This document shows positions 2,790 through 60,786 of a DNA stretch of 64,000 bases, in pieces (position 1 is the first letter of the stretch; each line of letters begins with the position of its first letter). The notes beneath the pieces were generated by a model that saw nothing but the letters and a program-made list of their open reading frames with translations, searched no databases and was not told the origin of the DNA. The DNA comes from Sphyrna mokarran (Eukaryota), in NCBI GenBank assembly GCA_024679065.1, contig JAGIQG010000005.1:44516001-44580000 (forward strand), in the 5' to 3' direction. A program made the position numbers and the translations under genes.

Positions 2790-3948
2790 TGATCTTGATT
2801 TTTGCAAGGTTTTTGATAAGGTACCGCATGGTAGATTGTTGCATATGGTTAAATCTTACGGGACTCAGGGTGTGGTAGCCAAGTGGGTACAAATTGGCTT
2901 GATGACAGAAGACAGAGGTTGAGTGTGGAGAGTAGTTTTTCAAACTGGACGCTTGTGACCAGCGGTGTGCCTCAGGGATCGGTACTGGATCCACTGTTAT
3001 TTGTCATTTATACTAATAATTTGAATGAGAATTTAGGAGCATGGTTAGTAAGTTTGCAGATGACACCAAGATTGGTAGCAAAGTAGATAGTGAAGGTGGT
3101 TATCGCGGATTGCAATGGAATCTTGATCATTTGGGCTAGTGGCTTGATGAATGGGAAATGGAGTTTAGTTTAGATAAATGTGAGGTAATGCATTTTGATA
3201 GATTGAACCAAGGCAGAACTTACTCAATTGGAGAGAATTATAGAAAAGAGGCCTAGAGATACAAGTTCATAGCTCCTTGAAAGTGGAGTCATAAGTGGAC
3301 AGAGTGGTGAAGAAGGTATTCGGCATGCTTGTTTTCATTGGTCAGAACATTGAATACAAGAGTTGGAATGTCTTGTTGAAGTTGTACAAAACATTAGTAA
3401 GGCCACACTTGGAATACTGTGTACAGTTCTGGTCATTCTAATGTAAAAAGGATATTTTATTAAACTAAAAAAGTGCAGAAGTGATTTACTAGAATGCTAC
3501 CGGGAGTTGATGGTTTGAGTTATAAGGAGAGGCTGGATAGATGGGATTTTTTTCCCTGGAGCATAGGACTCTTATCTTGTAGAGGACTATAAAATAATGA
3601 GGGACATATATAAGGTAGATATTCAGCATCTTTTCCCAAAGGTAGGGGACATTAAAACTAGAGGGCATAAGTTTAAAGTGAGAGAGCAGAGATACAAAAG
3701 GGTACAAAGGGGCAATTTTTTTCACATCGTGAGTGGTGAGTGTCTGGAACAGCTGCCAGAGGTAATAGTAGAGGCAGTACAATCTTATTTTTTTAAAAAG
3801 ATTTAAACAGTTGCATGAATAAGATGGGTATAGGGGGATATGGGCCAAACATAGGCAACTGGGACAAGCTTAGCAATTAAAAAAGGGGTGGTATGGACAA
3901 GTTGGGTCAAAGGGCCTGTTTCCATGTTGTAAACCTCAATAACTCTGA
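2790..3948 (+). mobile_element. CR1 LINE, 5'-truncated and degenerate (RT C-terminal half plus 3' tail)
   Basis: [27 protein letters not shown] and TRGHKFKV motifs in broken frames; GGGCCTGTTTCC tail. Confidence 0.9.
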
Positions 3949-11086: not shown

Positions 11087-11940
11087 AATATTTGTTTATA
11101 AGAAGTAGCAATGATTTAGAATAAATAAAACATCTATTTATTCTACACCACTACATAACAACATCAGGTGAGGAGTAGACAAAAAGGATGCAGTGCAAGA
11201 AGAGCAAAAGGATTTAGGTTGGCTATGCAAGTGGGCAGACACATAGTGAAGTAAAACATTGCACTTAGAAGGACTGGAATTGAATTATCACGTGGAGAAT
11301 TAGACCAGAGAGTAACATAGCAGGAGCATCACTTTCAGTATCCAGATTATGTGCTTCACTTCATGCCTAACCCCAAAGATGCAGAACAGAAGAAAGGTTT
11401 CTCGCTCCCTCTTCTTTTCATTGTCGATATTTTAGTTTATGGATTGATGGTTATGAATGGAATTAATGCCATTAAGCAGTGGGAGTGATTTGTTGCCATC
11501 ATCATGGGCATTCAGCAGCCCACCAGTCTTAATGTTCACTTAAGCAACTTCAGAACTTAGATAAAAAGCCTTCTGAATTCAACATCCAGTTCAACAACTT
11601 CTGGGAATGAAGTCTGTCCTTCATTTTGATTTTTTTTGCAAGTGCCAGTCTGTATTTTGTTTTCACTTTCAGACTGAACTGATCTTTATTCTGCTTTTAA
11701 CACCTCCTGTAGATCAATGCTTTGTTTCTTTACTACAATCATTGCTGTTCCCTTTTCCTTTTCTTGCATGATGTCTTTGATATTTAATATCCCCTGTCCT
11801 CTGGACCATCCCTAACCTTCCCCTTCTTTCCTTACTCGAAACTGTTCACTTGTCCTATTCAGCAGCATAAAACTCATCACATTTCAATCTTTCTTCTGTT
11901 CTGGAGAGGGTTATAGTTATTTGAAGTATAGAATGTAGAA

Positions 11941-14900
11941 TGAAGGGGGAAAATTTGCTAAGGCTATGATGGGGGCGTTAAACTGATTCGGGGGGGGGGT
12001 GGGATCCTAAGTAGTTGGGGTGCTGAGAGGGATGAGAGTAAGGGGGTTATAGAGGAGAGTTGTAAAACACAGCGGCGTACGGGTGGGGTGGAGCATGGTT
12101 TGAGATGCGTATACTTTAATGCAAGGAGTATTCGCAATAAGGGGGAGGAACTTGCAGCTTGGACCAGTACCTGGAACTTCGATGTTGTGGCCATTTCAGA
12201 GACTTGGGTAGAGCAGGGACAGGAATGGATGTTGCAGGTTCCGGGGTACAAATGCTTTAGTCGGAGTAGAGAAGGGGGTAGAAGGGGGGGAGGAGTGGCG
12301 TTAATGGTCAAAGACTGTATCACGGTGATCGAAAAGAAGTTTGATGAGGACTTGTCTGTGGAGGTAGTATGGGCTGAGATTAGAAACAGGAGAGGAGAGG
12401 TCACCCTGTTGGGAGTCTTTTACAGACCTCCTAATAGTTCTAGAGAGGTTGAGGAAAGGATTGCAAAGTCAATTCTGATTAGGAGTGAAAGTAGTAGGGT
12501 AATTGTGATGGGGGACTTTAACTTTGCTAATATTGATTGGAATAGCTATAGCTCTAGCTCGTTAGAGGGGTCAGTTTTCGTACAGAGTGTGCAGGAAGGT
12601 TTTTTGACTCAGTATGTAGATAGGCCAACTAGAGGTGAGGCTACATTGGATTTGGTGCTGGGCAATGAGCCAGACCAGGTGTTAGGCTTGGAAGTTAGTG
12701 AACATTTTGGTGATAGTGACCACAATTCGGTTACGTTCACCTTAGTGATGGACAGGGATAGGCATGAAGCTGGGGGCTGTAGTTATAGCTGGGGGAAGGG
12801 TAATTATGAGGCCATCAGGAGAGAATTAGGGTGCGTAGATTGGACTAGGGAACTACAGGGACTGGGTACATCTGGAATGTGGTGCTTATTCAAGGAGCAG
12901 CTGCTGAGAGTCCTTGATAAGTATGTCCCTGTCAGGCAGGGAGGAAATGGACGAGTAAGAGAGCCTTGGTGTACGAAAAGAGTTGATTTGCTGGTTAAGA
13001 AGAAAAAGGAGGCTTATGTCAGGATGAGGCTTGAAGGCTCAGGTAGTGCAATGGATAGCTATAGATTAGCTAGGAAGGAGGTAAAAAGTGAATTGAGGAG
13101 AGCTAAGAGGGGACACGAGAAGATGTTGGCTGATAGGATTAAGGAGAATCCTAAAGCTTTCTTTCGATATGTTAAGAATAGAAGATTGGTTAGGGCGAGA
13201 TTAGGGCCAGTCATAGACAGCAGTGGGAAGTTGTGCGTGGAGCCTGAAGAGATTGGTGAGGCACTGAATAAATATTTCTCTTCGGTATTCACGCAGAGTG
13301 CTGGAAATGTAGCTGTGGAGAGCACTGAGGTACAGGGTTGCAAATTGGGGAGTATTGTAGTAGATAGGGAGGATGTGTTAGAAATTCTCGAGGGTTTGAA
13401 GTTGGATAAGTCCCCTGGGCCGGACGGGATTTACCCTAGGATTCTCTGGGAGGCAAGAGAGGAGATTGCAGAGCCTCTGGCTCTGATCTTCAGGTCCTCG
13501 TTGGTTACGGGTGTGGTTCCGGAGGACTGGAGGATGGCGAATGTGGTCCCATTGTTTAAGAAGGGGAAGAGAGACCTTCCTGGGAATTATAGGCCAGTGA
13601 GTCTTACTTCTGTGGTGGGCAAGGTATTGGAGAGAATTATTAGGGATAGGATTTATAGTTATTTGGAGAGAAATGAATTGATTGGGGATAGTCAGCATGG
13701 TTTCGTGAAGGGTAGGTCATGCCTTACTAACCTCATTGAGTTTTTTGAGAAAGTGACCAGAGAGGTGGATGGGGGGTAAGGCGGTTGATGTAGTATATAT
13801 GGACTTTAGTAAGGCGTTTGATAAGGTGGCCCATGGAAGACTTCTACAGAAAATGCAGATGTGTGGAATAGAGGGTGATTTAGCTAATTGGATTAGGAAT
13901 TGGCTGGCAGATAGAAGACAGAGGGTGGTGGTTGATGGGAGATATTCATCGTGGAGTTCGGTGACGAGTGGTGTGCCTCAGGGGTCTGTTTTGGGGCCCC
14001 TGCTGTTTGTAATTTTTATAAATGATCTGGATGAGGGTATTGAGGGATGGATCAGTAAATTTGCAGATGATACTAAAGTTGGTGGTGTGGTAGATAGTGA
14101 AGAGGGGTGTTTTAGGTTACAGAGTGACTTGGACAAGTTGCAGAGCTGGGCCGAGAGGTGGCAAATGGAGTTAATGTGGAAAAGTGTGAGGTAATGCACT
14201 TTGGCAGGAACAATAAATGTGTAGAGTATAGGGCTAATGGTAGGGCTCTTAATAGTGTTGGGAAACAGAAGGATCTTGGTGTATGTGTCAATAGATCCCT
14301 GAAAGTAGGCAGTCAAGTGGATAAAGTTGTTAAGAAGGCATATGGAGTCTTAGCTTTTATTGGCAGGGGGATTGAATTTAGGAGCCGCAGCATCATGTTG
14401 CAACTGTACAAAAATCTAGTGCGGCCGCACTTGGAGTATTGTGTGCAGTTCTGGTCCCCACATTATAAGAAAGATGTGGAGGCATTGGAGAGGGTACAGA
14501 GGATGTTTACCAGGATGTTGCCTGGTATGGAGGGCAGGTCCTATGAAGAGAGGTTGAAGGATTTGAGGTTGTTTTCGTTAGAAAGGAGTCGGCTAAGAGG
14601 GGATCTTATTGAAGCATATAAGATGATTAGAGGTTTAGATAGGGTGGACAGTGATAGCCTTTTTCCCTAGGATGGAGAAAGCTAGCACGAGGGGACACAG
14701 CTTTAAATTAAGGGGTATGAGTTATAGGACGGATATCAGAGGTAGGTTCTTTACTCAAAGAGAGATTAGGGAGTGGAATGCCCTGACTGCAGCTGTTGTA
14801 GATGCGCCAAGTTTGGTGGCGTTTAAGAGGTTAGTTGATAAGGATATGGATGAGAAGGGAATGGTTTAGTTAGGAGGGGCATTGCTTTTTATTTTGGTCG

Positions 14901-14960
14901 GCACAACATCGAAGGCCGAAGGGCCTGTTCTGTGCTGTATTGTTCTATGTTCTATGTTCT
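11941..14960 (+). mobile_element. Young CR1 LINE: last codons of ORF1 plus complete ORF2 (APE endonuclease and RT), three single-base frameshifts
   Basis: ORF1 end GGKFAKAMMGALN*. EN motifs YFNARSI, ISETW, YRPP, GDFN, SDH; RT motifs [27 protein letters not shown]. (TTCTATG)n tail. 17-bp TSD AAGTATAGAAT(G/A)TAGAA at 11924-11940 and 14961-14977. Confidence 0.97.
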
Positions 14961-15845
14961 AAGTATAGAATATAGAAAGCAATTTTCCATGGCAATGTCT
15001 CAACCAGTGTGCACTTGACAACAAATTAGCACTCTCTTTGCATGCAATACAAGTAGTTGTTCCCTTTGCATTTGATATTTTTGAGAATTGTCCTGATATG
15101 TGCAAAATGAAAAGCTTCAACAAGATGTCTTTCTTCAGCAATAGTCATATTGGACTTAAAACGTGAACTCTGCTCCTCTCTGCAGACACTGTCAGACCTT
15201 ATTTCAGAATTGAATGTCTTCCTCATTTTCTTTGAGATTGGTTTGTTTTATTTTCCCCCTTTAGTTAGCTTTTGCAGTCTCACTGCAAGGACAGTATACT
15301 ATATTTTAATTTCATATCTGATAAACTGCTGCCAGTTTCTCCTATTTTGTAGCCTTTTCCTCAGGTGTACCCTTCACTACCCTACCTACTTGCACACTCT
15401 TTTTGATTTAATGTCTTTAGTTTTCTTCCCTGTTGCCTCACATAATTTTACACATCATCTAAATATCCTGTTTTTCTTTCACTTCTACATTCTGCTTTCA
15501 TCAGATTCTATTATAGTGTTTACTCAGCTTTCAATCAGCAATTCCAAGGAAGGTCCTGGACCATGACATCAGTTTGACTGCTTTGTGACATATGCTGACT
15601 GACACGTTCTGTCTTGCCAGCATTTTCTGTTTTAATTCAGCATTTCAGTTTCCTTTAAATTTTATTTTCTTATTTTCCTACCTTTTCCTCTGATACATGG
15701 AATTTATACACCAATAGACAAATTATTCATACACCATGCTCTGTGTCCAGCTGGATGAGTTTGTATTTGTCTGCTCCTGTTCTTGTCTATTCAGTTGTAA
15801 CTATAGCCTCAACTATTAACTTCCTGTCCTGTTCCCCCCACTATA

Positions 15846-16981
15846 CTTCAGCAGGGCGTTTGATAAGGTTCCCCATGCAAGACTTCTTGAAAAAGTGAGA
15901 GGGCATGGGATCCAAGAGGCTGTTGCCTTGTGGATCCAGAACTGGCTTGTCTTCAGAAGGCAACAAATGCTTGTGAATGGGTCTTTTTCTGCATGGAGGT
16001 TGGTCACCAGTGGAGTGCCCCAGGGATCCTTGCTGCTTGTCATTTTCATAAATGACTTGGATGAGGAAGTGGAGGGATGGGTTGGTAAGTTTGCCAATGA
16101 CACGAAGGTTAGTGGCATTGTGGATAGTCTGGAAGGTGCAGCGAAACTAGATAGGATACAATTCTGGGCAGAGAAGTGGCAGATGGACTTCAACGCGGTT
16201 AAATGTGTAGTGGTCCATTTTGCAGGTCCAATGGGATGAAGGAGTACAATATCAAGGGTAGGAGTCTTAGCAGTGTAGAGGGGCAGAAGGATCTTGGGTC
16301 TGGGTCCATAGGACTCTTAAATTGGCCTCGCAGGTGGAGGATGTGGTCAAAAACGCATATGATGTGCTAGCCTTCATTAATCGAGGGATTGAGTTGAGGA
16401 GTCGGGAGATAATGCTGCAACTTCTAAGACCCTTGTCAGACCCCACTTGCAGAACTGTGCACAGTTCTGGTCGCCCCACTACAGAAAGATGTGGAAGCTA
16501 TTGAAAGGGTGCAGAGGAGATTTACAAGAATGTTGCCTGGATTGGGTGGCATGACTTATGAGGATAGGTTGAGGGAGCTAGATCTTTTCTCCCCGGAGAA
16601 ATGAAGGTTGAGAAGTGACCTGATAAAGGTTTATAAGATGTTGAGAGGTATAGATAGGGCGGATTCTTGGAGGCTATTTCCCAGGGCTGAAATGGTCGCT
16701 ATGAGAGGACACAGGTTTAAAGTGCTGGAGAGTAGGTACAGAGAAGATGTCAGAGGTAAGTTTTTCACACAGAGGGTGGTGAATGAGTGGAATTGGCTGC
16801 CGTCGGTGGTGGTGGAGGCGAACTCGTTGCGGTCTTTTAACAGACTTCTGAATGAGTAGATGGGATTTAATGGAATTGAAGGTTATAGATAGGCCAGGTA
16901 GGTGGGGATATGATCGGCGCATATTGTGGGCCAAAGGACCCGTTTGTGCTGTAGTGTTCTATGTTTATGTTCTATGTTCTA
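15846..16981 (+). mobile_element. CR1 LINE, 5'-truncated
   Basis: RT C-terminal motifs ([23 protein letters not shown]) and (TTCTATG)n tail. Confidence 0.9.
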
Positions 16982-19387: not shown

Positions 19388-19710
19388 TTTTTTTATTCAT
19401 TCATGGGATGTGGGTGTCATCAGCTGGCCCAGCAATTACTGCTCAGACATTTCAGAGGGCATTTATGAGCCAATTCCTGCTGGAGTCACATGTAGGCCAT
19501 ACCAGGTAAGCACAGCAGATTTCCAGACATTTGTGAACCAGATGATGAACAACAATCAATGAATGATGGTTTTGTGGTCATCTTTAGGCTTTTAATTCCA
19601 GATTTTTATTAGATTCAAATTTCACTGTGTGGTGGTATTTGAACCACGGTCCTCAGAGCATTGCCCTGGGTCTCTGAATTACTAGTCCTGTGCCAATATC
19701 ACTACATTAT
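19388..19710 (-). mobile_element. tRNA-headed SINE-like repeat, family A (target of the CR1 insertion at 19711)
   Basis: Same family as 856-1200; its last bases (TGCC) resume after 21440. Confidence 0.8.
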
Positions 19711-21432
19711 AGAACATAGAACATAGAACATTACAGCACAGAACAGGCCCTTTGGCCTTCGATGTTGCGCCGACCAATATAAAAAGCAATGCCCCTCCAA
19801 ACTAAACCATTCCCTTCTCTTCCATATACTTATCAACTAACTCTTAAACGCCACCAAACTTGGTGCATCTACAACTGCTGCAGGCAGAGCATTCCACTCC
19901 CGAACCACCCTTTGGGTAAAGAACCTACCTCTGATATCCGTCCTATAACTATCACCCCTTAATTTAAAGCTGTGTCACCTCGTGCTAGCTTTTTCCATCC
20001 TAGGAAAAAGGCTATCACTGTCCACCCTATCTAAACCTCTAATCATCTTATATGTTTCAATAAGGTCCCCTCTTAGCCGCCTCCTTTCTAACGAAAACAA
20101 CCTCAAATCCCTCAGCATCTCTTCATAAGACCTGCCCTCCATACCAGGAAACATCCTGGTAAACCTCCTCTGTACCCTCTCCAATGCCTCCACATCTTTC
20201 TTATAATGTGGGGACCAGAACTGCACACAATACTCCAAGTGCGGCCGCACTAGAGTTTGTACAGTTGCAACATGACGTTGCGGCTCCGAAATTCAATCCC
20301 CCTACCAATAAAAGCTAAGACTCCATATGCCTTCTTAACAACTTTCTCGACTTGACTGCCTACTTTCAGGGATCTATGCACATACACAACAAGATCCCTC
20401 TGTTCATCAAGACTACTAAGAATCCTACCATTAGCCCTATACTCTACACATTTATTATTCCTGCCATAGTGCATTGCCTCACACTTTTCCACATTAAACT
20501 CCATTTGCCACCTCTCGGCCCAGCTCTGCAACTTGTCTAAGTCCCTCTGCAAACTATAACACCCCTCTTCACTATCTACCACTCCACCAACTTTAGCGTC
20601 ATCTGCAAATTTACTAATCCATCCTTCAATACCCTCATCCAGATCATTTATAAAAATTACAAACAGCAGGGGCCCCAAAACAGACCCTGAGGTACACCAC
20701 TTGTCACCGAACTCCACGATGAATATCTCCCATCAACCACCACCCTCTGTCTTCTATCTGCTAGCCAATTCCTAACCCAATTAGCTAAATCACCCTCTAT
20801 CCCATACATCTGCATTTTCTGCAGAAGTCTTCCATGGGCCACCTTATCAAACGCCTTACAAAAGTCCATATATACCACATCAACCGCCTTACCCCCATCC
20901 ACCTCTTTAGTCACTTTTTCAAAAAACTCAATGAGGTTAGTAAAGCACGACCTACCCTTCACAAAACCATGCTGACTATCCCCAATCAATTCATTTCTCT
21001 CTAAATAACTATAAATCCTATCCCTAATAATTCTCTCCAATACTTTGCCCAAAACAGAAGTAAGACTCACTGGCCTATAATTCCCTGGAAGGTCTCTCTT
21101 CCCCTTCTTGAACAATGGGACCACATTCGCTATCCTCCAGTCCTCCAGAACCACACCCGTAACCAACGACGACCTGCAGATCAGAGCCAGAGGCTCTGCA
21201 ATCTCCTCTCTTGCCTCCCAGAGAATCCTAGGGTAAATCCCGTCCGGCCCAGGGGACTTATCCAACTTCAAACCCTCGAGAATATCTAGCACATCCTCCC
21301 TATCTACTTCGATACCTTTCAGTTTGCTACCCTGTACCTCAGTGTTCTCCATAACTACATTTACATCACCCTGCGTGAATACCGAAGAGAAATATTTATT
21401 CAGTACCTCTCCAATCTCTTCAGGCTCCACAC
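19711..21432 (-). mobile_element. Young CR1 LINE, 5'-truncated, same subfamily as 11941-14960
   Basis: Near-identical RT ORFs (20657-21436, 20250-20717, 19975-20250); (AGAACAT)n tail on the + strand; TSD ACATTAT at 19704-19710 and 21433-21439. Confidence 0.95.
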
Positions 21433-23334
21433 ACATTATTGCCTAGGAAGCATTAAACTTGATGCTATGCATTTGGTAATAAACTTGAATGACTTTCTCT
21501 TCAAGAAAAATTTTCCTTGATCATCAAAACACAACCTGGAACTTACAGAAACTGTAAATTCATTGTGAGGTCAATGCAAAGTGGCCAATTAACATAAGTA
21601 TGACTTATTGCAGCTATACCAACTAATAATTATTGAAGTATTGCATAACACCCATCCAGGATGTTTTGGTGGCTGATCATAACATATTTCTTCTTCTTTA
21701 CAATTCCATTTGTGACCGTCCATTGCCATACCTTTTCCTCACCCCAATCTCTGCCATCTCCTCCTACAGTTTGCTTAAGGTCTCCAATCCTTACATTCGG
21801 TATATTTTATCTAAATCTACCTTAAAGTTATTTACACCACTGCTGATCTTTGACCATACTTCTTGTGTTCCTTTTTAACACCTGGGACTCTGCTTCATTA
21901 AATTTCTGGTATTTTGTTTTTTAATCAGTACTGTACAGCTCTGTTGAACTATATTGCATGCTTTGTTGAATTCTGCTCTGCCACTCAGTTTTAAGTTTAA
22001 TATGACCTGCTTCAACCCAAAATGTGAATGATCCATCTCCTGCTGTTACCCATTGGACTTTTGCATTACACTCCAGTGTTTTCCTATCTTTGCTCTTTAC
22101 TCTGTTGTTATTTTGTGACCTTGGCTAAAACATGTTTTCTCCTGGACTAAATGTAATTTCTCTGCCCCTACCAGGTCTTGTTATGATCTGGTGTTTTCTA
22201 CTTTGCACTATCTTCTAGGATACTTCTGTTATAATATCTGCCCTGCTGCTCACTTATGAGCCGAGATTCTTGTCCCTTTTTCAGGCTTTTCACTTTATAC
22301 TGGTCTAATTCTTGACTTCATCATCTTTTGTCAGATTGAATTTAAAAGGTTGTTTCAGTTCCTAGTTCACAGCTGTTTCTTGGCTCAATTACCTCATTTA
22401 TATTGATGCTATGGATACACCCTCCACCCACAGTGATCAAATTTCAGACCTGTTTATTTAGCTCCAAAGTGCTTCGGGGCAACCTGAGGTTGTGAAAGGT
22501 GCTATGTGAATACAGTCTGTTATGCCTTGGCATTTCCATAAAGGCTTATCGAAGCACATATCACTGCTTCATTATGAGCTCATTACTAATAAGTAACCAA
22601 GGTATATATTGAAAACGGTGGGGAGTTTAATGACAAAACATTTAAGAAATTAGTTCCAATGTATACACTGAGGAATTCCTGCAATGATGGCATTGAGCTG
22701 AGATAGTTACAGTCTACGGCTAGTTGTGTGACAGGTGTTGAGAAGGAGTTTTTGCTTATTTTAAAGTTTCTCTGCAAATCAGCTGTTTCTAGGCATAGAT
22801 GCATTTGTACAAATTCCCTTTGGAGCATGACTTGAGGAATGAAGAGGGGTCATAAAGAGGACAAGCCTTTAGCAGAAGGAATAGGAGAAAGGAGGGCTCT
22901 CAGCAGGAAGCCATAACAACCAAGAGTGCTGAATATAATTTTTTTCTCTGAACCTTGATAAACAGTGTGCGATGTTTGGTGTTTTAGCATGAACATCACC
23001 ACTAAAATCTGCCACTTACTCAGACACAACCACAACCACAACCTCTGAACAGGCAAGAACCACATTGCCAGTGATTCTGAAGGTGATCATGGCAATCAAC
23101 ATTTATCTGTTTGATTTCTTCCAGGTTGGAACTAGAAATATTTGTGACATCTCAGTTTTCTGACCATCACTGAGATTCAATATGCAATGAGAGGTAACTA
23201 CATTTCATTCTCTTTTCCCAGAAAGAAGCAAGCAATGTGAGCATGTGACTTCATTAGGACTGTAGGTTTTCCCATGGTGCAGGATGCCATTGCTAAATGC
23301 ATGTTCCGTTGTGAACATCACATCTAGGCAAGGG

Positions 23335-26285: not shown

Positions 26286-28480
26286 CGTAAGAATGTAAGA
26301 ACTAGGAGCAAGAATAGGCCATTTGGCCCCTCAAGCCTGCTCCGCCATTCAATAAGATCATGGCTGATCTTTTCATGAACTCAGCTCCACTTATCTGCAC
26401 GTTCACCATAATTCACCCTTAATATTCAAAAATTTATCTATCCTTGCCTCAAAAACATTCATTGAGGTTGCCTCAACTGCTTCACTGAGCAGGAATTCCA
26501 CAGATTCACAATCTTTTGTGTGAAGAAGTTCCTCGTTAACTCAGTCCTAAATCCCCTTATTTTGAGGTTATGTCCCCTAAGACTCTTGTCAGACCCCAGT
26601 TGGAGTATTGTGCGCAGTTCTGGTCGCCTCATTATAGGAAGGATGTAGAGGCTATTGAGAGAGTTCAGAGGAGATTTACAAGGATGCTGCCTGGATTGGG
26701 AGGCAGGCCTTATGAAGATAGGTTGAGGGAGCTGGGACTCTTCTCACTGGAGCGACGTAGGTTGAGAGGCGACCTGATAGAGGTTTATAAAATGTTGAGA
26801 GGAATAGATAGGGTGGACTCTCAGAGACTATTTCCCCGAGCTGAAATGGTCACTACGAGAGGACACCGATTTAAGGTGCAGGGAAGCAAATACAAAGGAG
26901 ATGTCAGGGGTAGGTTTTTCACTCAGAGGGTGGTGAGTGAATGGAACCGACTGCATCGGAGGTTGTTGAGGTAAACTCACTGGGGTCTTTTAAGAGACTT
27001 CTGGATCAGTACATGGAAACGAATAGGATAGGGGGTTATAGATAGGTCTGTGGATTGGTAAATGTGATCAGTACAACTCGTGGGCCGAAGGGCCTGTTTG
27101 TGCTGTATTGTTCTATGTTCTAGTTCTAGTTTTACCTGCCAGTGGAAACAACTTCTTTGCTTCCATCTTATTTATTTCTTCATTATCTTGTATGTTCCTA
27201 TAAGATCTCCCCTCATTCTTCTGAATTCCCATGAGTATAGCCCCAGTTTACTTAATCTCTCCTCATAAGCCAACCTTCTCAACTCTGGAATCAACCTAAT
27301 GAATCTCTTTTGTACCCTCTCCAGTGCCAGTATATGCTTTCTCAAGGAGACCAAAACTGTACACAGTACTCCAGGTGTGACCTCATCAGCACCTTATACA
27401 GCTGCAACATAACCTCCCTGATTTTAAACTCCATCCCTCTCGCAATGAAGGACAAAATTCCATGTGCCTTCTTAATTACCTGCTGCACCTGCAAACCAAC
27501 TCCTTCTGATTCTTGCACAAGGACATCCAGGTCCTTCCGTACACCAGCATTCTGCAATTTTTACTATTTAAATAATAGTCCATTTTGCTGTTATTCCTAC
27601 CAAAATAGGAAACTCTATCGGCTAGTCTGAGTGGGCGAGGATCTATCTATATCCCTTTGCAGATTTCAGTATTCTCTGCACACTTTGCTCTGCCAATCAT
27701 CTTAGTGTCATCTGCAAATTGTGACACACTACACTTAGTCCCCAATTCCAAATCATCTATGTAAATCGTAAATAATTGCAGTCCCTGAGGCCCACCACTA
27801 GTCACTGATCACCAACCAGAAAAACATGCTTTACCCCCATTCTTTGCCTTCTTGTAGCTAACCAATTCTCTATCCATGTTAATACATTACCTGTAACACC
27901 GTACACCTTTACCTTATGTAGCAGTCTTTGGTGTGGCATCTTGTCAAATTCCTTTAGGAAATCCAGATACACCACATCCACAGATTCCCATTGTCCACTG
28001 TACATGTAATGTTTTCAAAAAATTCCACCAAAGTAGTCAAATATGACCTTCCCTTCATGAACTCATGCTGCATCTTACCAATGAGGCAATTTATATCCAG
28101 ATGTCTCACTATTTTTTGCTTGATGATAGATTCAAGCATTTTCCTTACTCTAGAAGTTAAGCTAACTGGCTTCCATTAATTGCCTTTTGTCTACCTCTTT
28201 TTTAAACGGTGACATCACATTTGCTTTTTTCCAATCTGTGACACTCCAGAGTCCAGGGAATTTTGGTAAATTATCACTAGTGCATTTGCTATTTCTCCTG
28301 CCATCTCTTTTAATACCCTGGGATGCATTCCATCAGGGCCAGGAGACTTGTCTACCTTTAGCCCCATCAACTTGCCCAACACTATCTCTTCTTTATGATA
28401 ATGATAGTTTCTAAGTCTTGACCTGCCATAGCTTTCCAGTCATCAATTTTTGGCATGTTATTTGTGTCTTCTCTGTGAAG
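26286..28480 (-). mobile_element. Older CR1 LINE, interrupted by an opposite-strand CR1
   Basis: 3' end at 26286-26579 (TAAGAACTAGGAGCA...CCATTCAATAAGATCATGGCTGATC), resuming at 27120 with RT remnants (VDVVYLDFLKEFDKMPH). Confidence 0.85.
26580..27119 (+). mobile_element. Young CR1 3' fragment nested in an older CR1
   Basis: ORF KTLVRPQLEYCAQFWSPHYRKD...FFTQRVV; TTCTATGTT tail; host sequence CCCCTA|GTTCTAG is split with CTA repeated. Confidence 0.9.
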
Positions 28481-29792: not shown

Positions 29793-31185
29793 TTAAAGAA
29801 CAAAGAACAAAGAACAAAACAGCACGGGAAACAAGCCCTTCGGCCCAACGAGCCCGCGCTACCACCCCGATGTTCCCACCTCTATCTATGATCCCTGTCT
29901 ATGTTTATAGATCTATGCATTAGAACCAAATTTGAGACAATTTAGGGAGAGTTTGTTTTGCCAATTAGCCTAAGAGCACATCTTTGGGATGTGGGAGGAA
30001 ACTGGAGCACCCAGAGAAAACCCAAGCAAGCACGGGGAGAATGTGCAAACTCCCACAGACACAGGCCCAAATCCATGTATCTGCACAGCACAGCGATAGT
30101 CACTGAGCTGTCATGTTGCCCATCAAACGGTCCAGGTCACACTAACGACGTGAAGCACTAGGATACTCTTGAAAAAAATCCAAGAGCAGCCCTCTCACAA
30201 CCCATTGCATGTATGCCCCTCGTTAGACAACAAGGTGGACCAAAGCACCTGTAGGATAAAAACAAGTACATCAATATCATCATCTATTTACACACTTCCC
30301 AGGGACTCCCAAGGCTCATGATCCCTATTTTAAATCAGTTTTCTATACCCCTCCATTCCCATTCTGTTCATGTGCCCATCTAAGTATTTCTTAAATAACT
30401 CCAGAGTACCTGCCTCCACCACTTTACTTGGCAGCGCATTCCATACCCCCACCACCCTCTGTGTGAAAAAACTCCCTCTAGCATCCAAATTATACCTTAC
30501 CCCCTTCACCCTAAGCCCGTGACCCCTCGTGCTATTTGAGTCCATCCTAGGAAAAAGCTTAACCCTGTTTACTCTATCTATACCCCTCATAATCTTGTAC
30601 ACCTCTATTAGATCTCCTCTAAGTCTACGTCTTTCTAAGGAAAACAGTCCCAATTTGCCTAACCTCTCTTCGTGACTCAGACCTTCCATACCAGGCAGCA
30701 TCCTGGTAAACCTCCTCTGCACTCTCTCCAGAGTCTCCACGTCCTTCCGGTAGTAAGGCGACCAGAACTGGATACAGTATTCCAAATGAGGTCTAACCAA
30801 CGTTTTATACAATTGCAACATTAAAGGCCAGCTCTTGTGCTCTATACCCCTTCCTATAAAGGCTAGCATACCATATGCTTTCTTCACCTTTTCCACTTGC
30901 TCTGCCACCTTCAGAGACTTGTGCACCTGCACCCCCAGGTCCCTCTGCATTTCTATACTGTTAATATGTCTGCCCTTTATCATATACCTCCCCCCTACAT
31001 TCTTTCTCCCAAAATGTTTCACTTCGCATTTATCAGGATTGAATTCCATCTGCCATCTATCTGCCCAAGCTACCAGCCTATGTCCTACTGCATCGCCTGA
31101 CAATGCTCTTCACTATCCGCAAGTCCAGCCATCTTTGTATCATCTGCAAACTTGCTGATCACTCCACTTACTCCCTCTTCCAAGT
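29793..31185 (-). mobile_element. CR1 LINE 3' part whose 3' region continues into a structured module, an HE1-like SINE body and a (TTCTTTG)n tail
   Basis: Open RT C-terminal ORF 30330-31103 with no CR1 tail directly after the stop. Module at 30120-30259, HE1 head/V-domain at 29940-30120, tail GGGCCGAAGGGC...TTGTTCTTTGTTCTTT at 29793-29860. Confidence 0.75.
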
Positions 31186-41849: not shown

Positions 41850-44225
41850 AATCTTTACAACAATCTGAGTCCCCATCTGCTTCAAAAAGACAACATCATC
41901 CCAGTACTCAAGAAAAACCAAGCAGCATGCGTTAATGACTATCGCCTGTCTCTGATATCCATCATTATGAAGTGCTTCAAAAGGTTAGTCATGGCATGAA
42001 TCAATTCCAGCACTACTTTGTTCCACTACAATTTGCCTACTGCCATAACAGGTCCATAGCAGACACCATTTCCCTGGCCCTGCACTCAATCGTGGAACAT
42101 CTAGATAATAAGGACACCTATGTCAGACTCCTATTTATTGACTGCAGCTCAACATCATTATTTCCATGAAACTATGATCAAACTCTATGGCCTGGGCTTC
42201 GACACCTTCCTTTGCAACTGGATCTTGAACTTCCTAACTCACAGATCACAATCTGTAAGGGATAAACAACAACATTCCTTCTCCACAATCATCCTCAATA
42301 CCGGCGCCCCACAAGGCTTGTTTTCAGCTCCCTTCTATATTTCTTATACACCTACAACTGTGCGGCCTAATTCTTCTCCAATTCAATTTTCAAGTTTGCT
42401 GATGACACCACTGTGGCGGGTCGGATCTCAAATAATGATGAGGCAGAGTACAGGAATGAGATAGGAAACTAGTGCAGCAACAATAATCTCTCCCTCAATG
42501 CCAACAAAATGAAGGAGATTGTCATCAAATTCAGGAAGCGTAAAAGAGAACATGCCCCTATTTACATCAATGGGGACGAAGTAGAAAGAGTTGAGAGCTT
42601 CAAGTTTTTAGGTGTTCAGATCACTAACAGCCTGTCCTGGCCACCCCATGCCAACACCATATTAGGAAAGCCCACCAATGCCTCTATTTTTAAAGACTAA
42701 GGAAATTTGACACGTCAGCTATGATTTTCATCAACCTTTACAGATGCACCATAGAAAGTGTTCTTTCTGGTTGTATCACAACTTGGTATGGCTCCTTCTC
42801 TGCCCAAGACTGCAAGGAACTACAGAAGGTCATGAATGTAGCCCAATGCATTATGCAATCTAGCCTCCCATTGACTCTATTTACACTTTCCACTGCCTCA
42901 TCAAAGCAGCCAGCATAATTAAGGACCACACACACGTTCTCTCTTCCACCTTCTTCCTTTGGGAAAAAGATATAAAAGGTCATATACCAACTGACTCAAG
43001 AACAACTTCTTTCCTGCTGCCGTCAGACTTTTGAATGGACTTATCTTGCTTTAAGTTGATCTACATTCTGCATTCACGTTTCCTTCTCTATTAAGATAGA
43101 AGACAGAGGGTGGTGGTTGATGGAAATTCATCGTGGAGTTCGGTTACAAGTGGTGTACCTCAGTTATCTGTTTTGGGGCCCCTGCTATTTGTAATTTTTA
43201 TAAATGATCTGGATGAGGGTATTGAAGGATGGACTAGTAAATTTGCGGATGACACCAAAGTCGGAGGAGTGGTAGATAGTGAAGAGGGGTGTTATAGTTT
43301 GCAGAGAGACTTGGACAAGTTGCAGAGCTCGACCGAGAGGTGGCAAATGGAGTTTAATGCGGAAAAGTGTGAGGTAATTCACTTTGGCAGGAATAACGAA
43401 TGTGTAGAGTACAGGGCTAATGGTAGGATTCTTAATAGTGTCGATGAACAGAGGGATCTTGGTGTATATGTGCATAGATCCCTGAAAGTTGGCAATCAAG
43501 TCGATAAGATTGTTAAGAAGGCATATGGAGTCTTAGCTTTTATTGGTAGGGGGATTGAATTTTGGAGCCGCAACATCATGTTGCAACTGTACAAAACTCT
43601 AGTGCGGCCGCACTTGGAGTATTGTGTGCAGTTCTGGTCCCCACATTATAAGAAAGATGTGGAGGCATTGGAGAGGGTACAGAGGAGGTTTACCAGGATG
43701 TTGCCTGGTATGGAGGGCAGGTCTTATGAAGAGAGGCTAAGGGATTTGAGGTTGTTTTCGTTAGAAAGAAGGCGGCTAAGAGGAGACCTTATTGAAACAT
43801 ATAAGATGATTAGAGGTTTAGATAGGGTGGACAGTGATAGCCTTTTTCCTAGGATGGAGAAAGCTAGCACGAGGGGACATAGCTTTAAATTAAGGGGTGG
43901 TAGTTATAGGATGGATGTCAGAGGTAGGTTCTTTACCCAGAGGGTGGTAAGGGTACGGAATGCCCTGCCTGCTGCAGTTGTAGATGCACCAAGTTTGGTG
44001 GCGCTTAAGAGGTTAGTAGATAAGTTTATGGATGAAAAGGGAATGGTTTAGGTTAGGGGGACATTGCTTTTTCTTAATTGGTCGGCACAACATCGAAGGC
44101 CGAAGGGCCTGTTCTGCGCTGTAATGTTCTATGTTCTATTAACAGTACGTTTTGTCTGTACAGCGCACAAGAAACAATACTTTTCACTGTATTATTTTCA
44201 CATGACAGTAATAAATCAAATCAAA
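41850..44225 (+). mobile_element. Rex1/Babar-clade LINE, decayed, inserted in CR1 and itself interrupted
   Basis: [71 protein letters not shown] and YRCTIESVLSGCITTWYG motifs; AATAAATCAAATCAAAT tail at about 44210-44226. Confidence 0.85.
43094..44140 (+). mobile_element. Young CR1 LINE, 5'-truncated, same subfamily as 11941-14960
   Basis: Uninterrupted 313-aa RT C-terminal ORF (43110-44051); TSD TCTATTAA at 43087-43094 and 44135-44142. Confidence 0.95.
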
Positions 44226-59640: not shown

Positions 59641-60786
59641 AACACATGAATTATAATCTTTTTTCTGTTCAAATCCTTGTTATGCCTTAATTGAATGCCC
59701 AGGCCATCCAATTTTATTGCTGATATTTACACTAGATTTATACAATTGGATGGTTACAAAGTCACTTCAGGAGGGCAGCTAAGAGTCAGTCATGTTGGTC
59801 ACTTAGAGGCCAAACTATACTGGTGCACAATAACAGAATCACAGAATACTACAGTGCAGAAGAGGCCCTTTGGCCCATCGAGTCTGCACCAACATAATTT
59901 TCAATGCTTCAATTAGGTTGTCCCTTAGTCTTCTCTGCTCCAATGTAAACATCTCAAGCCTATCCAACCTCTCTTCATTATTTAACAGCATAGTTATGTT
60001 ATTAGTCTAGTAATCAAGAGGACTGAGCTAAAGACCAGTGACATGAGTTTAAACCTCAACACAGCAGTTGCATAATTCAGTGTTATTAAAATCTGGAATA
60101 AATGCTAATATTAGCAATGGTGACCGGATTGTTGTAAAAATCCACCTGGTTCACTAGTATCATTAATGGGAACAAAATCTGTAAAAAAAAAAAATCTGTG
60201 ATTCTAGTGAATCTTTGATTCACTGTAAGCAATGCCGACAGAAGATATCCATTTGGCTTTGTACAGGGCAGGTCATGTCTTAGTAACTTGACTGATTTTC
60301 TTCAAACGATCAATAAGGGCAGAGCAGTTTTTGTTGTCCACATGGATTTTAGTCAGGCTTTTGACAAGACTCCTCATAGTAGACTGTAATCCAGAAGATT
60401 AAGATGCATGGGACCAATGGTGACTTGGCCACTTGGATTCAGAATTGGCTGTCCACAGAAGTCAGAGAGTTGTGGTGGAGGGTGTTTTTCTAGCTGGAGG
60501 TCTGCGAATAGGGGTATTCCACAGGAATTTGTACTGGGACCTCTTGCTGTTTGTTTGGAATGAAAACGTAGATGGCTGGGTTATTAAGTTTGCAGATGAC
60601 ACAAGAATAGGTGGAGTTGTGGATAGTGTAGTAGGTTGTCAAAGGATACAGTGGGATATTGATCAGTTGCTGATCTGGGTGGAGAAACGGCAGGTGAAGT
60701 TTAATCTGGGCACGGGCAAGATGTTGCACTTTGCAAGATCAATTGTCAAGGGTAAGTACACATTTAATGCAGGACTCTAAACAGAG

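Follow-up and report, generated by a model that had tools for sequence, protein, structure and literature searches.

A conserved slippery heptamer at the ORF1/ORF2 junction of CR1 retrotransposons suggests expression of ORF2 by -1 ribosomal frameshifting

Introduction

How is the second open reading frame (ORF2) of a CR1 element translated when no AUG precedes the interior of its endonuclease domain? The question is raised by a CR1 long interspersed nuclear element (LINE) in a stretch of 64,000 nucleotides (nt) of Sphyrna mokarran DNA (GenBank assembly GCA_024679065.1, contig JAGIQG010000005.1, positions 44,516,001 to 44,580,000 of the forward strand), here called the window and numbered from its first letter. 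At the ORF1/ORF2 junction of this copy, a slippery heptamer in the ORF1 phase directly precedes the ORF1 stop codon, and ORF2 continues in the -1 frame. Comparison with other copies, published consensuses and distant relatives suggests that ORF2 of CR1 elements is likely expressed through -1 ribosomal frameshifting, as part of an ORF1-ORF2 fusion. The window copy is a dead, truncated fossil of this translational signal.

Translation of ORF2 in two-ORF LINEs has been called an open question, with re-initiation, internal ribosome entry sites and 2A peptides given as options (PMC3708506, PMC3894237), and intergenic spacers between LINE ORFs are assumed in the latter paper. Most vertebrates have the CR1 group as their dominant retrotransposon, and in sharks and rays it accounts for 22-34% of the genome (PMC13343379); the accessible text of that paper contains none of the terms "slip", "overlap" and "start codon" and does not discuss the junction signal. 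Nor is a CR1 frameshift proposed in the accessible portions of PMC11835228, PMC1925062, PMC4255032 and PMC4120745, and that of PMC5009743 does not contain "CR1". CR1 frameshifting is thus undescribed in the literature searched, with the original CR1 papers and Repbase reports outside the search; what we add is the clade-wide pattern of heptamers and the apparent swap of the candidate stimulator. A paper on turtle CR1 reportedly noted overlapping ORFs, and such papers may already have suggested a frameshift, which limits novelty.

Results

The junction of the Sphyrna mokarran element

A sequence-only reading of the window had described GTTAAAC read as G TTA AAC in the ORF1 phase and followed by TGA, an ORF2 frame that is open from 11962 and lies -1 relative to ORF1, and a TGATTC spacer followed by G10-T-GGG and later G runs. 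All of these are present in the window (Table 1). That reading had also placed every ORF2 ATG beyond the start of the endonuclease, which holds as well: the first in-frame ATG, at 12229, lies some 40 codons past the start of the Pfam endonuclease match, and the GTG is found at 12088. A SART1-type AUG overlapping the ORF1 stop (UAAUG or UGAUG) is absent from the junction, which reads TGATT, with ATT where a SART1-like ATG would sit; no T-to-G variant is listed among related copies. The sequence [G/T]TTAAAC followed by a stop occurs three times in the window and is not rare alone, so the case for a slip site rests on its conservation.

Related copies carry U_UUA_AAC

Sequences of other copies, drawn from four of 23 listed runs, were aligned to positions 11880-12300 at 80% likeness. 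Organisms A (5926 contigs) and C (449) were informative; the remaining two runs (X3, X22) gave one record each, that of the raw RNA run being one read. Position 11977 is T in 18211 of 20464 units of contig depth in organism A (89%, 51 contigs) and in 1172.8 of 1172.8 in organism C (100%, 18 contigs), depth not being equal to copy number. From 11978 to 11987 neither a variant of at least 8% nor an indel is listed in either organism. The family thus has U_UUA_AAC directly before UGA, and G at 11977 is private to the window copy; G_UUA_AAC, put forward earlier as a functional site of the arterivirus type, was rejected on this ground.

The described run of ten Gs is present in the window and partly private to it: 11990 is A in 60% (A) and 46% (C) of depth and 11992 in 75% and 30%, so that related copies mostly have a shorter first G run with a later start. 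The AUG inside the endonuclease is unstable, with TTG replacing the ATG at 12229 in 28% of depth in organism A and 73% in organism C. An in-frame AUG between the stop and the endonuclease, which the sequence-only reading had named as grounds for giving up the frameshift, arises from none of the variants listed for the subfamily in these organisms; some other families do have an AUG at or just after the ORF1 stop.

The heptamer is conserved in published vertebrate consensuses

The supplement of PMC13343379 holds about 1000 consensus rows, and we searched the first 400 letters of each. TTTAAAC followed by a stop gave 23 matches, assigned by reading to 17 CR1 ORF1/ORF2 junctions, one Crack junction and five places elsewhere; the 17 are a count of matches and not a fraction of all families. 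They come from 11 vertebrate species: crocodile and dogfish contribute three each, alligator and catshark two each, and bowfin, bullfrog, chimaera, stingray, sawfish, coelacanth and bearded dragon one each. Six synonymous, non-slippery spellings before TAG gave 11 matches in the same letters, none of them in a CR1 row. Thus the conservation of (T/G)TTAAAC at other CR1 junctions, proposed beforehand as a check, was found as U_UUA_AAC both in subfamily copies and in published vertebrate junctions. Across these families the position homologous to a start codon reads ATG, ATT, AGT, AGG or AGC and the heptamer is fixed, which argues that an AUG is not the conserved signal.

The Crack junction belongs to AldAff_Crack-2 of a halosaur, whose esterase-like ORF1 ends in TTTAAAC TAG. 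The signal may accompany the esterase ORF1 outside CR1 proper.

Distant relatives exchange heptamers at the same place

A scan of metagenome contigs supplied the best 80 of at least 259 relatives (28-41% identity), and genome contigs supplied four more. An upstream ORF homologous to other ORF1s is present in 56 loci, of which 18 fall among esterase-type and 38 among PHD-type elements (Pfam labels from 39 scanned ORF1s; grouping by a quick endonuclease tree without named references). Five loci broken far from the junction were dropped, leaving 51; keeping one locus per 70% endonuclease identity, picked regardless of frame, left 35 clusters. ORF2 lies in the -1 frame in 43 of the 51 loci (+1 in six, in frame in two) and in 30 of the 35 clusters (+1 in three, in frame in two; p 2e-10 against 1/3), although p-values here overstate independence because the loci are related.

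Within the -1 overlap, an in-phase canonical heptamer is found in all nine esterase-type clusters and in nine of 21 PHD-type clusters (15 of 21 with G_GA/G_UU). Its density in the overlap, 20/1008, compares with 19/8706 in the ORF1 body (p 2e-10) and 7/2016 off frame (p 2e-5). Esterase-type elements carry U_UUA_AAC or U_UUU_UUA beside the stop, one having A_AAA_AAU further up, and PHD-type elements carry A_AAA_AAC, G_GAA_AAC or G_GGA_AAC, mostly near the 5' end of overlaps of 55-268 nt. Because the encoded residues differ while heptamers swap at the same place, the constraint acts on nucleotides; the synonymous codon choices that build the heptamers have a joint chance of ~10^-5.4 over eight clusters. 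An in-frame ATG ahead of the first endonuclease motif is missing from 19 of the 30 clusters with a -1 ORF2.

Junction anatomy was compared in 22 loci picked for carrying the motif, together with the window. In 22 of these 23 junctions no stop interrupts the -1 frame between the heptamer and the endonuclease, a distance of 28-112 codons, and going upstream the frame closes after 1-16 codons; both other frames of the linker contain stops, likewise in 22 of 23. An open -1 frame that begins near the heptamer is the pattern that would be expected if ribosomes entered ORF2 there. The window and its relatives thus share a -1-frame overlap and an in-phase X_XXY_YYZ heptamer conserved beyond protein needs, which are sequence criteria of programmed -1 frameshifting.

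Two further loci, both missed by the ORF-length filter, lie outside these counts. L007 (120-150) has an esterase-type end and a -1 ORF2, with U_UUA_AAC placed two codons ahead of the stop; L024 (230-255) combines an esterase-type end and a -1 ORF2 with A_AAA_AAG and a nearby in-frame ATG. Viral contigs yielded no relatives. A protein search at E 0.001 returned no longer, fused ORF1-ORF2 protein, which is weak evidence; P0028, a spliced-looking gene model that joins an esterase-like part to an endonuclease, was not used as support. Animal CR1 sequences occur in assemblies labelled Aeromonas, Bathyarchaeota, Metamycoplasmataceae and Carnobacterium (L081, L082, L083, L084, protein P0003), probably through contamination, and no junction was found in the source genome of L081.

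Elements downstream of the candidate slip site

Likeness to named junctions, together with the tree, defined the vertebrate-type loci. In six of these seven a twin G-tract of the form G5-6, N1-2, G4-5 begins 11 nt past the heptamer; it does so in none of the 15 others. In each of the six it is the sole such motif within the next 0.6-1.5 kb, and both linker glycines that it encodes are spelled GGG (joint chance ~1e-7). The twin tract is also present in 11 of 16 assessable published junctions. Eight of the 15 other loci, near-duplicates among them, have a hairpin that starts 7-13 nt past the heptamer and is stabler than every control window. By sequence, the same slip site appears to be followed by different elements in different lineages, a twin G-tract in one case and a hairpin in the other. 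Structure after the candidate site of PHD-type elements is in the top decile in seven of 26 loci (p 0.012, near-duplicates included) and was not counted as support.

The stimulator envisaged in the sequence-only reading was an RNA G-quadruplex (G4). What stands of it is a twin G-tract at a fixed distance in vertebrate-type CR1s. Four G3 tracts with short loops at a spacer of 6-8 nt are not conserved, only two tracts being kept, starting at about +8 to +11, and we discarded the four-tract motif as a candidate for the conserved signal. At about 10 nt, the distance also exceeds the 6-8 nt optimum of synthetic G4 stimulators (PMC3919603). G4Hunter scores are 1.56-2.40 in all eight vertebrate-type junctions, and one other locus reaches 1.68; within the Sphyrna mokarran element the junction scores second best, with 1.92 against 2.32 at 12274 in the endonuclease. 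ViennaRNA places a two-tier G4 on the tract in four of the eight junctions (the window, L002, L047 and L056), and two tracts could form at most a two-tier intramolecular G4. From sequence, we regard a G4 role of the twin G-tract as somewhat improbable; candidate alternatives are binding of a G-run protein, pairing with a distant partner and pausing at the adjacent stop.

Anatomy of the window copy

The window CR1 spans 11945 to the end of its tail at 14961 on the + strand (Table 1). The copy is dead because its ORF2 is broken into four pieces in different frames, and a mere 13 ORF1 codons are left because it is 5'-truncated; in loose ends of 11 contigs from other copies, ORF1 runs on upstream of 11945. 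The remnant codons resemble the ends of relatives' esterase ORF1s and are too short for a domain scan. ORF2 matches PF03372 (endonuclease, aa 51-254), PF14529 and PF00078, an APE endonuclease followed by a reverse transcriptase (RT), and its best named protein relatives are from cartilaginous fishes. Hallmarks of CR1 LINEs are present in the form of a microsatellite tail without poly(A), 5' truncation and a 17-nt target-site duplication. The sense strand is G-rich, with a GC skew of 0.47 at 12001-14000.

Table 1. Junction and other features of the CR1 copy in the window
Feature	Position	Strand	Remarks
Slippery heptamer in ORF1 phase	11977..11983	+	G_UUA_AAC here, U_UUA_AAC in most related copies
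ORF1 stop and spacer	11984..11989	+	TGA at 11984-11986; longer in many copies with A at 11990, 11992
Twin G-tract	11990..12003	+	G10-T-G3 here; vertebrate-type CR1 typically G5-N1-2-G3-5; candidate stimulator
-1-frame linker	11983..12096	+	no AUG, no stop; from slip site to first endonuclease strand
First in-frame ATG of ORF2	12229..12231	+	within endonuclease
5' target-site duplication	11924..11940	+	17 nt, 1 mismatch against 3' copy
ORF1 remnant	11945..11986	+	terminal 13 codons GGKFAKAMMGALN and stop TGA; 5' truncation point 11945
ORF2 frame, first open piece	11962..13779	+	endonuclease ~12112-12723, start of RT
Remaining ORF2	13757..14869	+	three pieces in other frames: 13757-14194, 14128-14670, 14639-14869
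3' tail	14941..14961	+	(TGTTCTA) x3
3' target-site duplication	14961..14977	+	

The target site (11924-11944/14961-14977) reads much like the 3' microsatellite tail of the element itself in reverse complement, and four extra bases separate the 5' duplication from the truncated 5' end. More truncated CR1 copies lie in the window at 19710-21435 (-), 43094-44139 (+), 15845-16977, 26594-27128, 30432-31182 (-), 2867-3434 and 60324-60743. Two of the window's other copies belong to the same subfamily (91-93% identity) and several are older (65-70%); none reaches the ORF1/ORF2 junction, all being truncated 3' of it.

Discussion

The -1 overlap, the in-phase, lineage-specific heptamers and U_UUA_AAC with its stop at 17 published junctions make -1 frameshifting into an ORF1-ORF2 fusion the likely route of CR1 expression. 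Comparison strongly supports this part of the sequence-only reading, with U_UUA_AAC in place of G_UUA_AAC as the site, and supports its G4 only in part. Ribosomes would translate CR1 ORF1, and a minority of them would slip back one base at U_UUA_AAC by tandem tRNA slippage, aided by the downstream element as a putative stimulator and perhaps by the stop. The slipped ribosomes would then read through the flexible linker into the endonuclease and RT. The product would be a rare ORF1-ORF2 fusion amid many ORF1p molecules, an excess resembling that of gag over gag-pol. That CR1-clade LINEs use such a fusion animal-wide, and that vertebrates from chimaeras to crocodiles swapped a hairpin for an RNA G4 stimulator, is a wider proposition that we hold to be rather doubtful.

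Several observations weigh against the frameshift. Five of the 35 clusters are not -1. L002 and L071 resemble broken -1 copies, but a divergent PHD-type clade (L043, L044, L046 and L048; e.g. L046:1980-2000) has a genuine +1 ORF2, L038 keeps both ORFs in one frame, and L014 fits no explanation. Six of the 21 PHD-type clusters lack even a relaxed heptamer; five of the six share non-canonical G_GGG_GA(C/A), and the remaining one, L060, offers no candidate. The downstream elements are likewise uneven. The twin tract is missing or weak in five of the 16 published junctions and displaced in L056, the hairpin of non-vertebrate loci shows modest covariation (3 of 9 pairs, with a score also reached by 22 of 500 shuffles), and no strong hairpin is found at the window junction (fold z -0.7 to -2.2). 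Besides the relatedness of the loci, the 22 loci of the fold and linker comparison were selected for having the motif.

Some of these divergent junctions have features of their own. In the +1 clade 13-25 nt separate the ORF1 stop from the first endonuclease motif, and the mechanism at this junction is a different one. In the PHD-type L038 (1447-1460), ORF1 and ORF2 share one frame and are split only by UGA-C, a possible case of stop read-through, with two in-frame ATGs after the UGA. The sequence G_GGG_GA(C/A), a candidate unusual slip site, occurs in L031-L034, L036, L039, L040, L049, L054 and L080, where it sits 60-78 nt before the ORF1 stop, the place at which L058 carries the canonical G_GGA_AAC.

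The observations on start codons bear on a different account, in which ribosomes terminate at the ORF1 stop and re-initiate there, at an AUG or else at a near-cognate AUU, CUG or GUG, to give ORF2 as a separate protein, as described for SART1 and L1; the G-tract or hairpin would hold the ribosome. SART1 requires a downstream structure (PMC3708506, PMC10275272, PMC3894237), ORF2 of both L1 and SART1 depends on ORF1 translation (PMC2881922), and a stop-start overlap would likewise yield the -1 frame. A SART1-like TAATG is present in three of the 17 published junctions (catshark CR1-1a, dogfish CR1-17a and 6c), five of the 23 compared junctions (L001, L002, L047, L057 and L067) have an in-frame AUG no more than four codons from the heptamer, and predicted proteins such as P0011 begin at the junction AUG; all three also count against the frameshift. 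ATG stands 2 nt past the stop in L001, L002 and L047, as well as in L024, and TGATT in the window has a near-cognate ATT in place of the ATG, overlapping UGA. However, the start-like codon varies while the heptamer is constant, and re-initiation leaves unexplained both the in-phase exchange of unrelated canonical heptamers and the long AUG-less overlaps of PHD-type elements. We judge it quite unlikely. Re-initiation at a nearby AUG may nevertheless add to ORF2 output in some families, a complication for the frameshift. A dual route of this kind, in which frameshift fusion is accompanied by re-initiation, would fit the co-occurrence of heptamer and adjacent in-frame AUG at 5/23 loci and 3/17 published junctions; yet AUGs are expected by chance in linkers of 28-112 codons, and eight of the 23 linkers have none. 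Such a combination, which we hold possible at low odds, is compatible with frameshifting and counted within it where the shift is the main route.

Two other accounts dispense with the ribosome's slip altogether. If the motif were a by-product of a conserved x-L-N-stop protein end, shared ancestry and a G-rich strand, nothing would be programmed; the G-rich sense strand, the stronger G4Hunter score in the endonuclease and the kinship of the relatives favour this. Yet the protein ends vary (ALN, HLN, NLN, FLG, FLL, FLW, FLV) while the nucleotide pattern persists, synonymous heptamer variants are absent, and the twin tract is both spelled GGG at its two glycines and unique in the downstream sequence of its six loci. 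In view of codon choice, linker and synonymous variants, the by-product account appears largely refuted and is very improbable. An RNA-processing or polymerase signal, either a splice site with a G-run enhancer or transcriptional slippage, is hardly credible to us. By eye, TTTTTTAG in six U_UUU_UUA loci and AG/GT followed by G runs in several vertebrate-type loci look splice-like, but AG and GT are not conserved: stops may be TGA or TAA, sharks and rays have TAG-TT, and the window has neither dinucleotide. U_UUA_AAC contains no run long enough for polymerase slippage, and aligned contigs show no joint or indel at the site, a weak test with DNA contigs. Both versions were rejected, their features not being conserved.

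If -1 frameshifting is the route, the active CR1 enzyme would be an esterase-endonuclease-RT fusion. ORF2 starts annotated at the nearest AUG would then be wrong, cloned "ORF2-only" CR1 constructs would miss the natural N-terminus, and CR1 activity could respond to host or drug effects on frameshifting. The junction signal would be compact, at ~30 nt.

Comparison with known systems

The vertebrate canonical CR1 with an esterase ORF1 (PMC13343379) shares with the window element an ORF2 of APE endonuclease and RT and, judging by the ends of relatives, probably an esterase-type ORF1, and the window junction resembles the sawfish, stingray and catshark CR1 junctions of that set. Among bicistronic LINEs, SART1 with its UAAUG coupling and L1 with its re-initiation are alike in that ORF2 relies on ORF1 translation (PMC2881922). 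In SART1 an element downstream of the stop matters (PMC3708506, PMC10275272, PMC3894237), a parallel to the candidate stimulator of CR1, and three shark CR1 families share its TAATG. SART1 and L1 give free ORF2p; in CR1 the start codon is unconserved and the slippery heptamer is conserved. A -1 frameshift needed for ORF2 is given, per a figure legend, for Dictyostelium TRE5-A and TRE3-A, which are APE-type non-LTR (long terminal repeat) elements (PMC5911963) and differ from CR1 in clade and host.

G-tracts downstream of UUUAAAC raise -1 shifting in synthetic constructs (Yu et al., 2014, PMC3919603). These have four G3 tracts, a best spacer of 6-8 nt and at most 7% shift, compared with two tracts at about +8 to +11 in CR1. 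Natural use of G4 frameshift stimulators was called open in that paper and in a 2016 review (PMC5009743), and the twin G-tract is a candidate natural stimulator of the kind anticipated, unknown at the date of those papers.

The closest parallels in form are coronavirus 1a/1b and retroviral gag-pol, which have an in-phase X_XXY_YYZ, a -1 downstream ORF and the order of structural protein, then polymerase. U_UUU_UUA, the heptamer of some esterase-type elements, is the HIV-1 slip site. A 2026 paper is said to deal with G4s and codon-repeat frameshifting in human genes. PMC5009743 counts U_UUA_AAC, A_AAA_AAC and G_GGA_AAC as some of the shiftiest sites. Unlike these viruses, CR1 is a non-LTR retrotransposon, and the stop follows the heptamer directly in the window and in vertebrate-type elements; the latter have a twin G-tract ~10 nt on, without a strong hairpin or known pseudoknot. 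By sequence criteria, the CR1 junction would work like a viral -1 frameshift site, a predicted and conserved signal seen from a dead copy.

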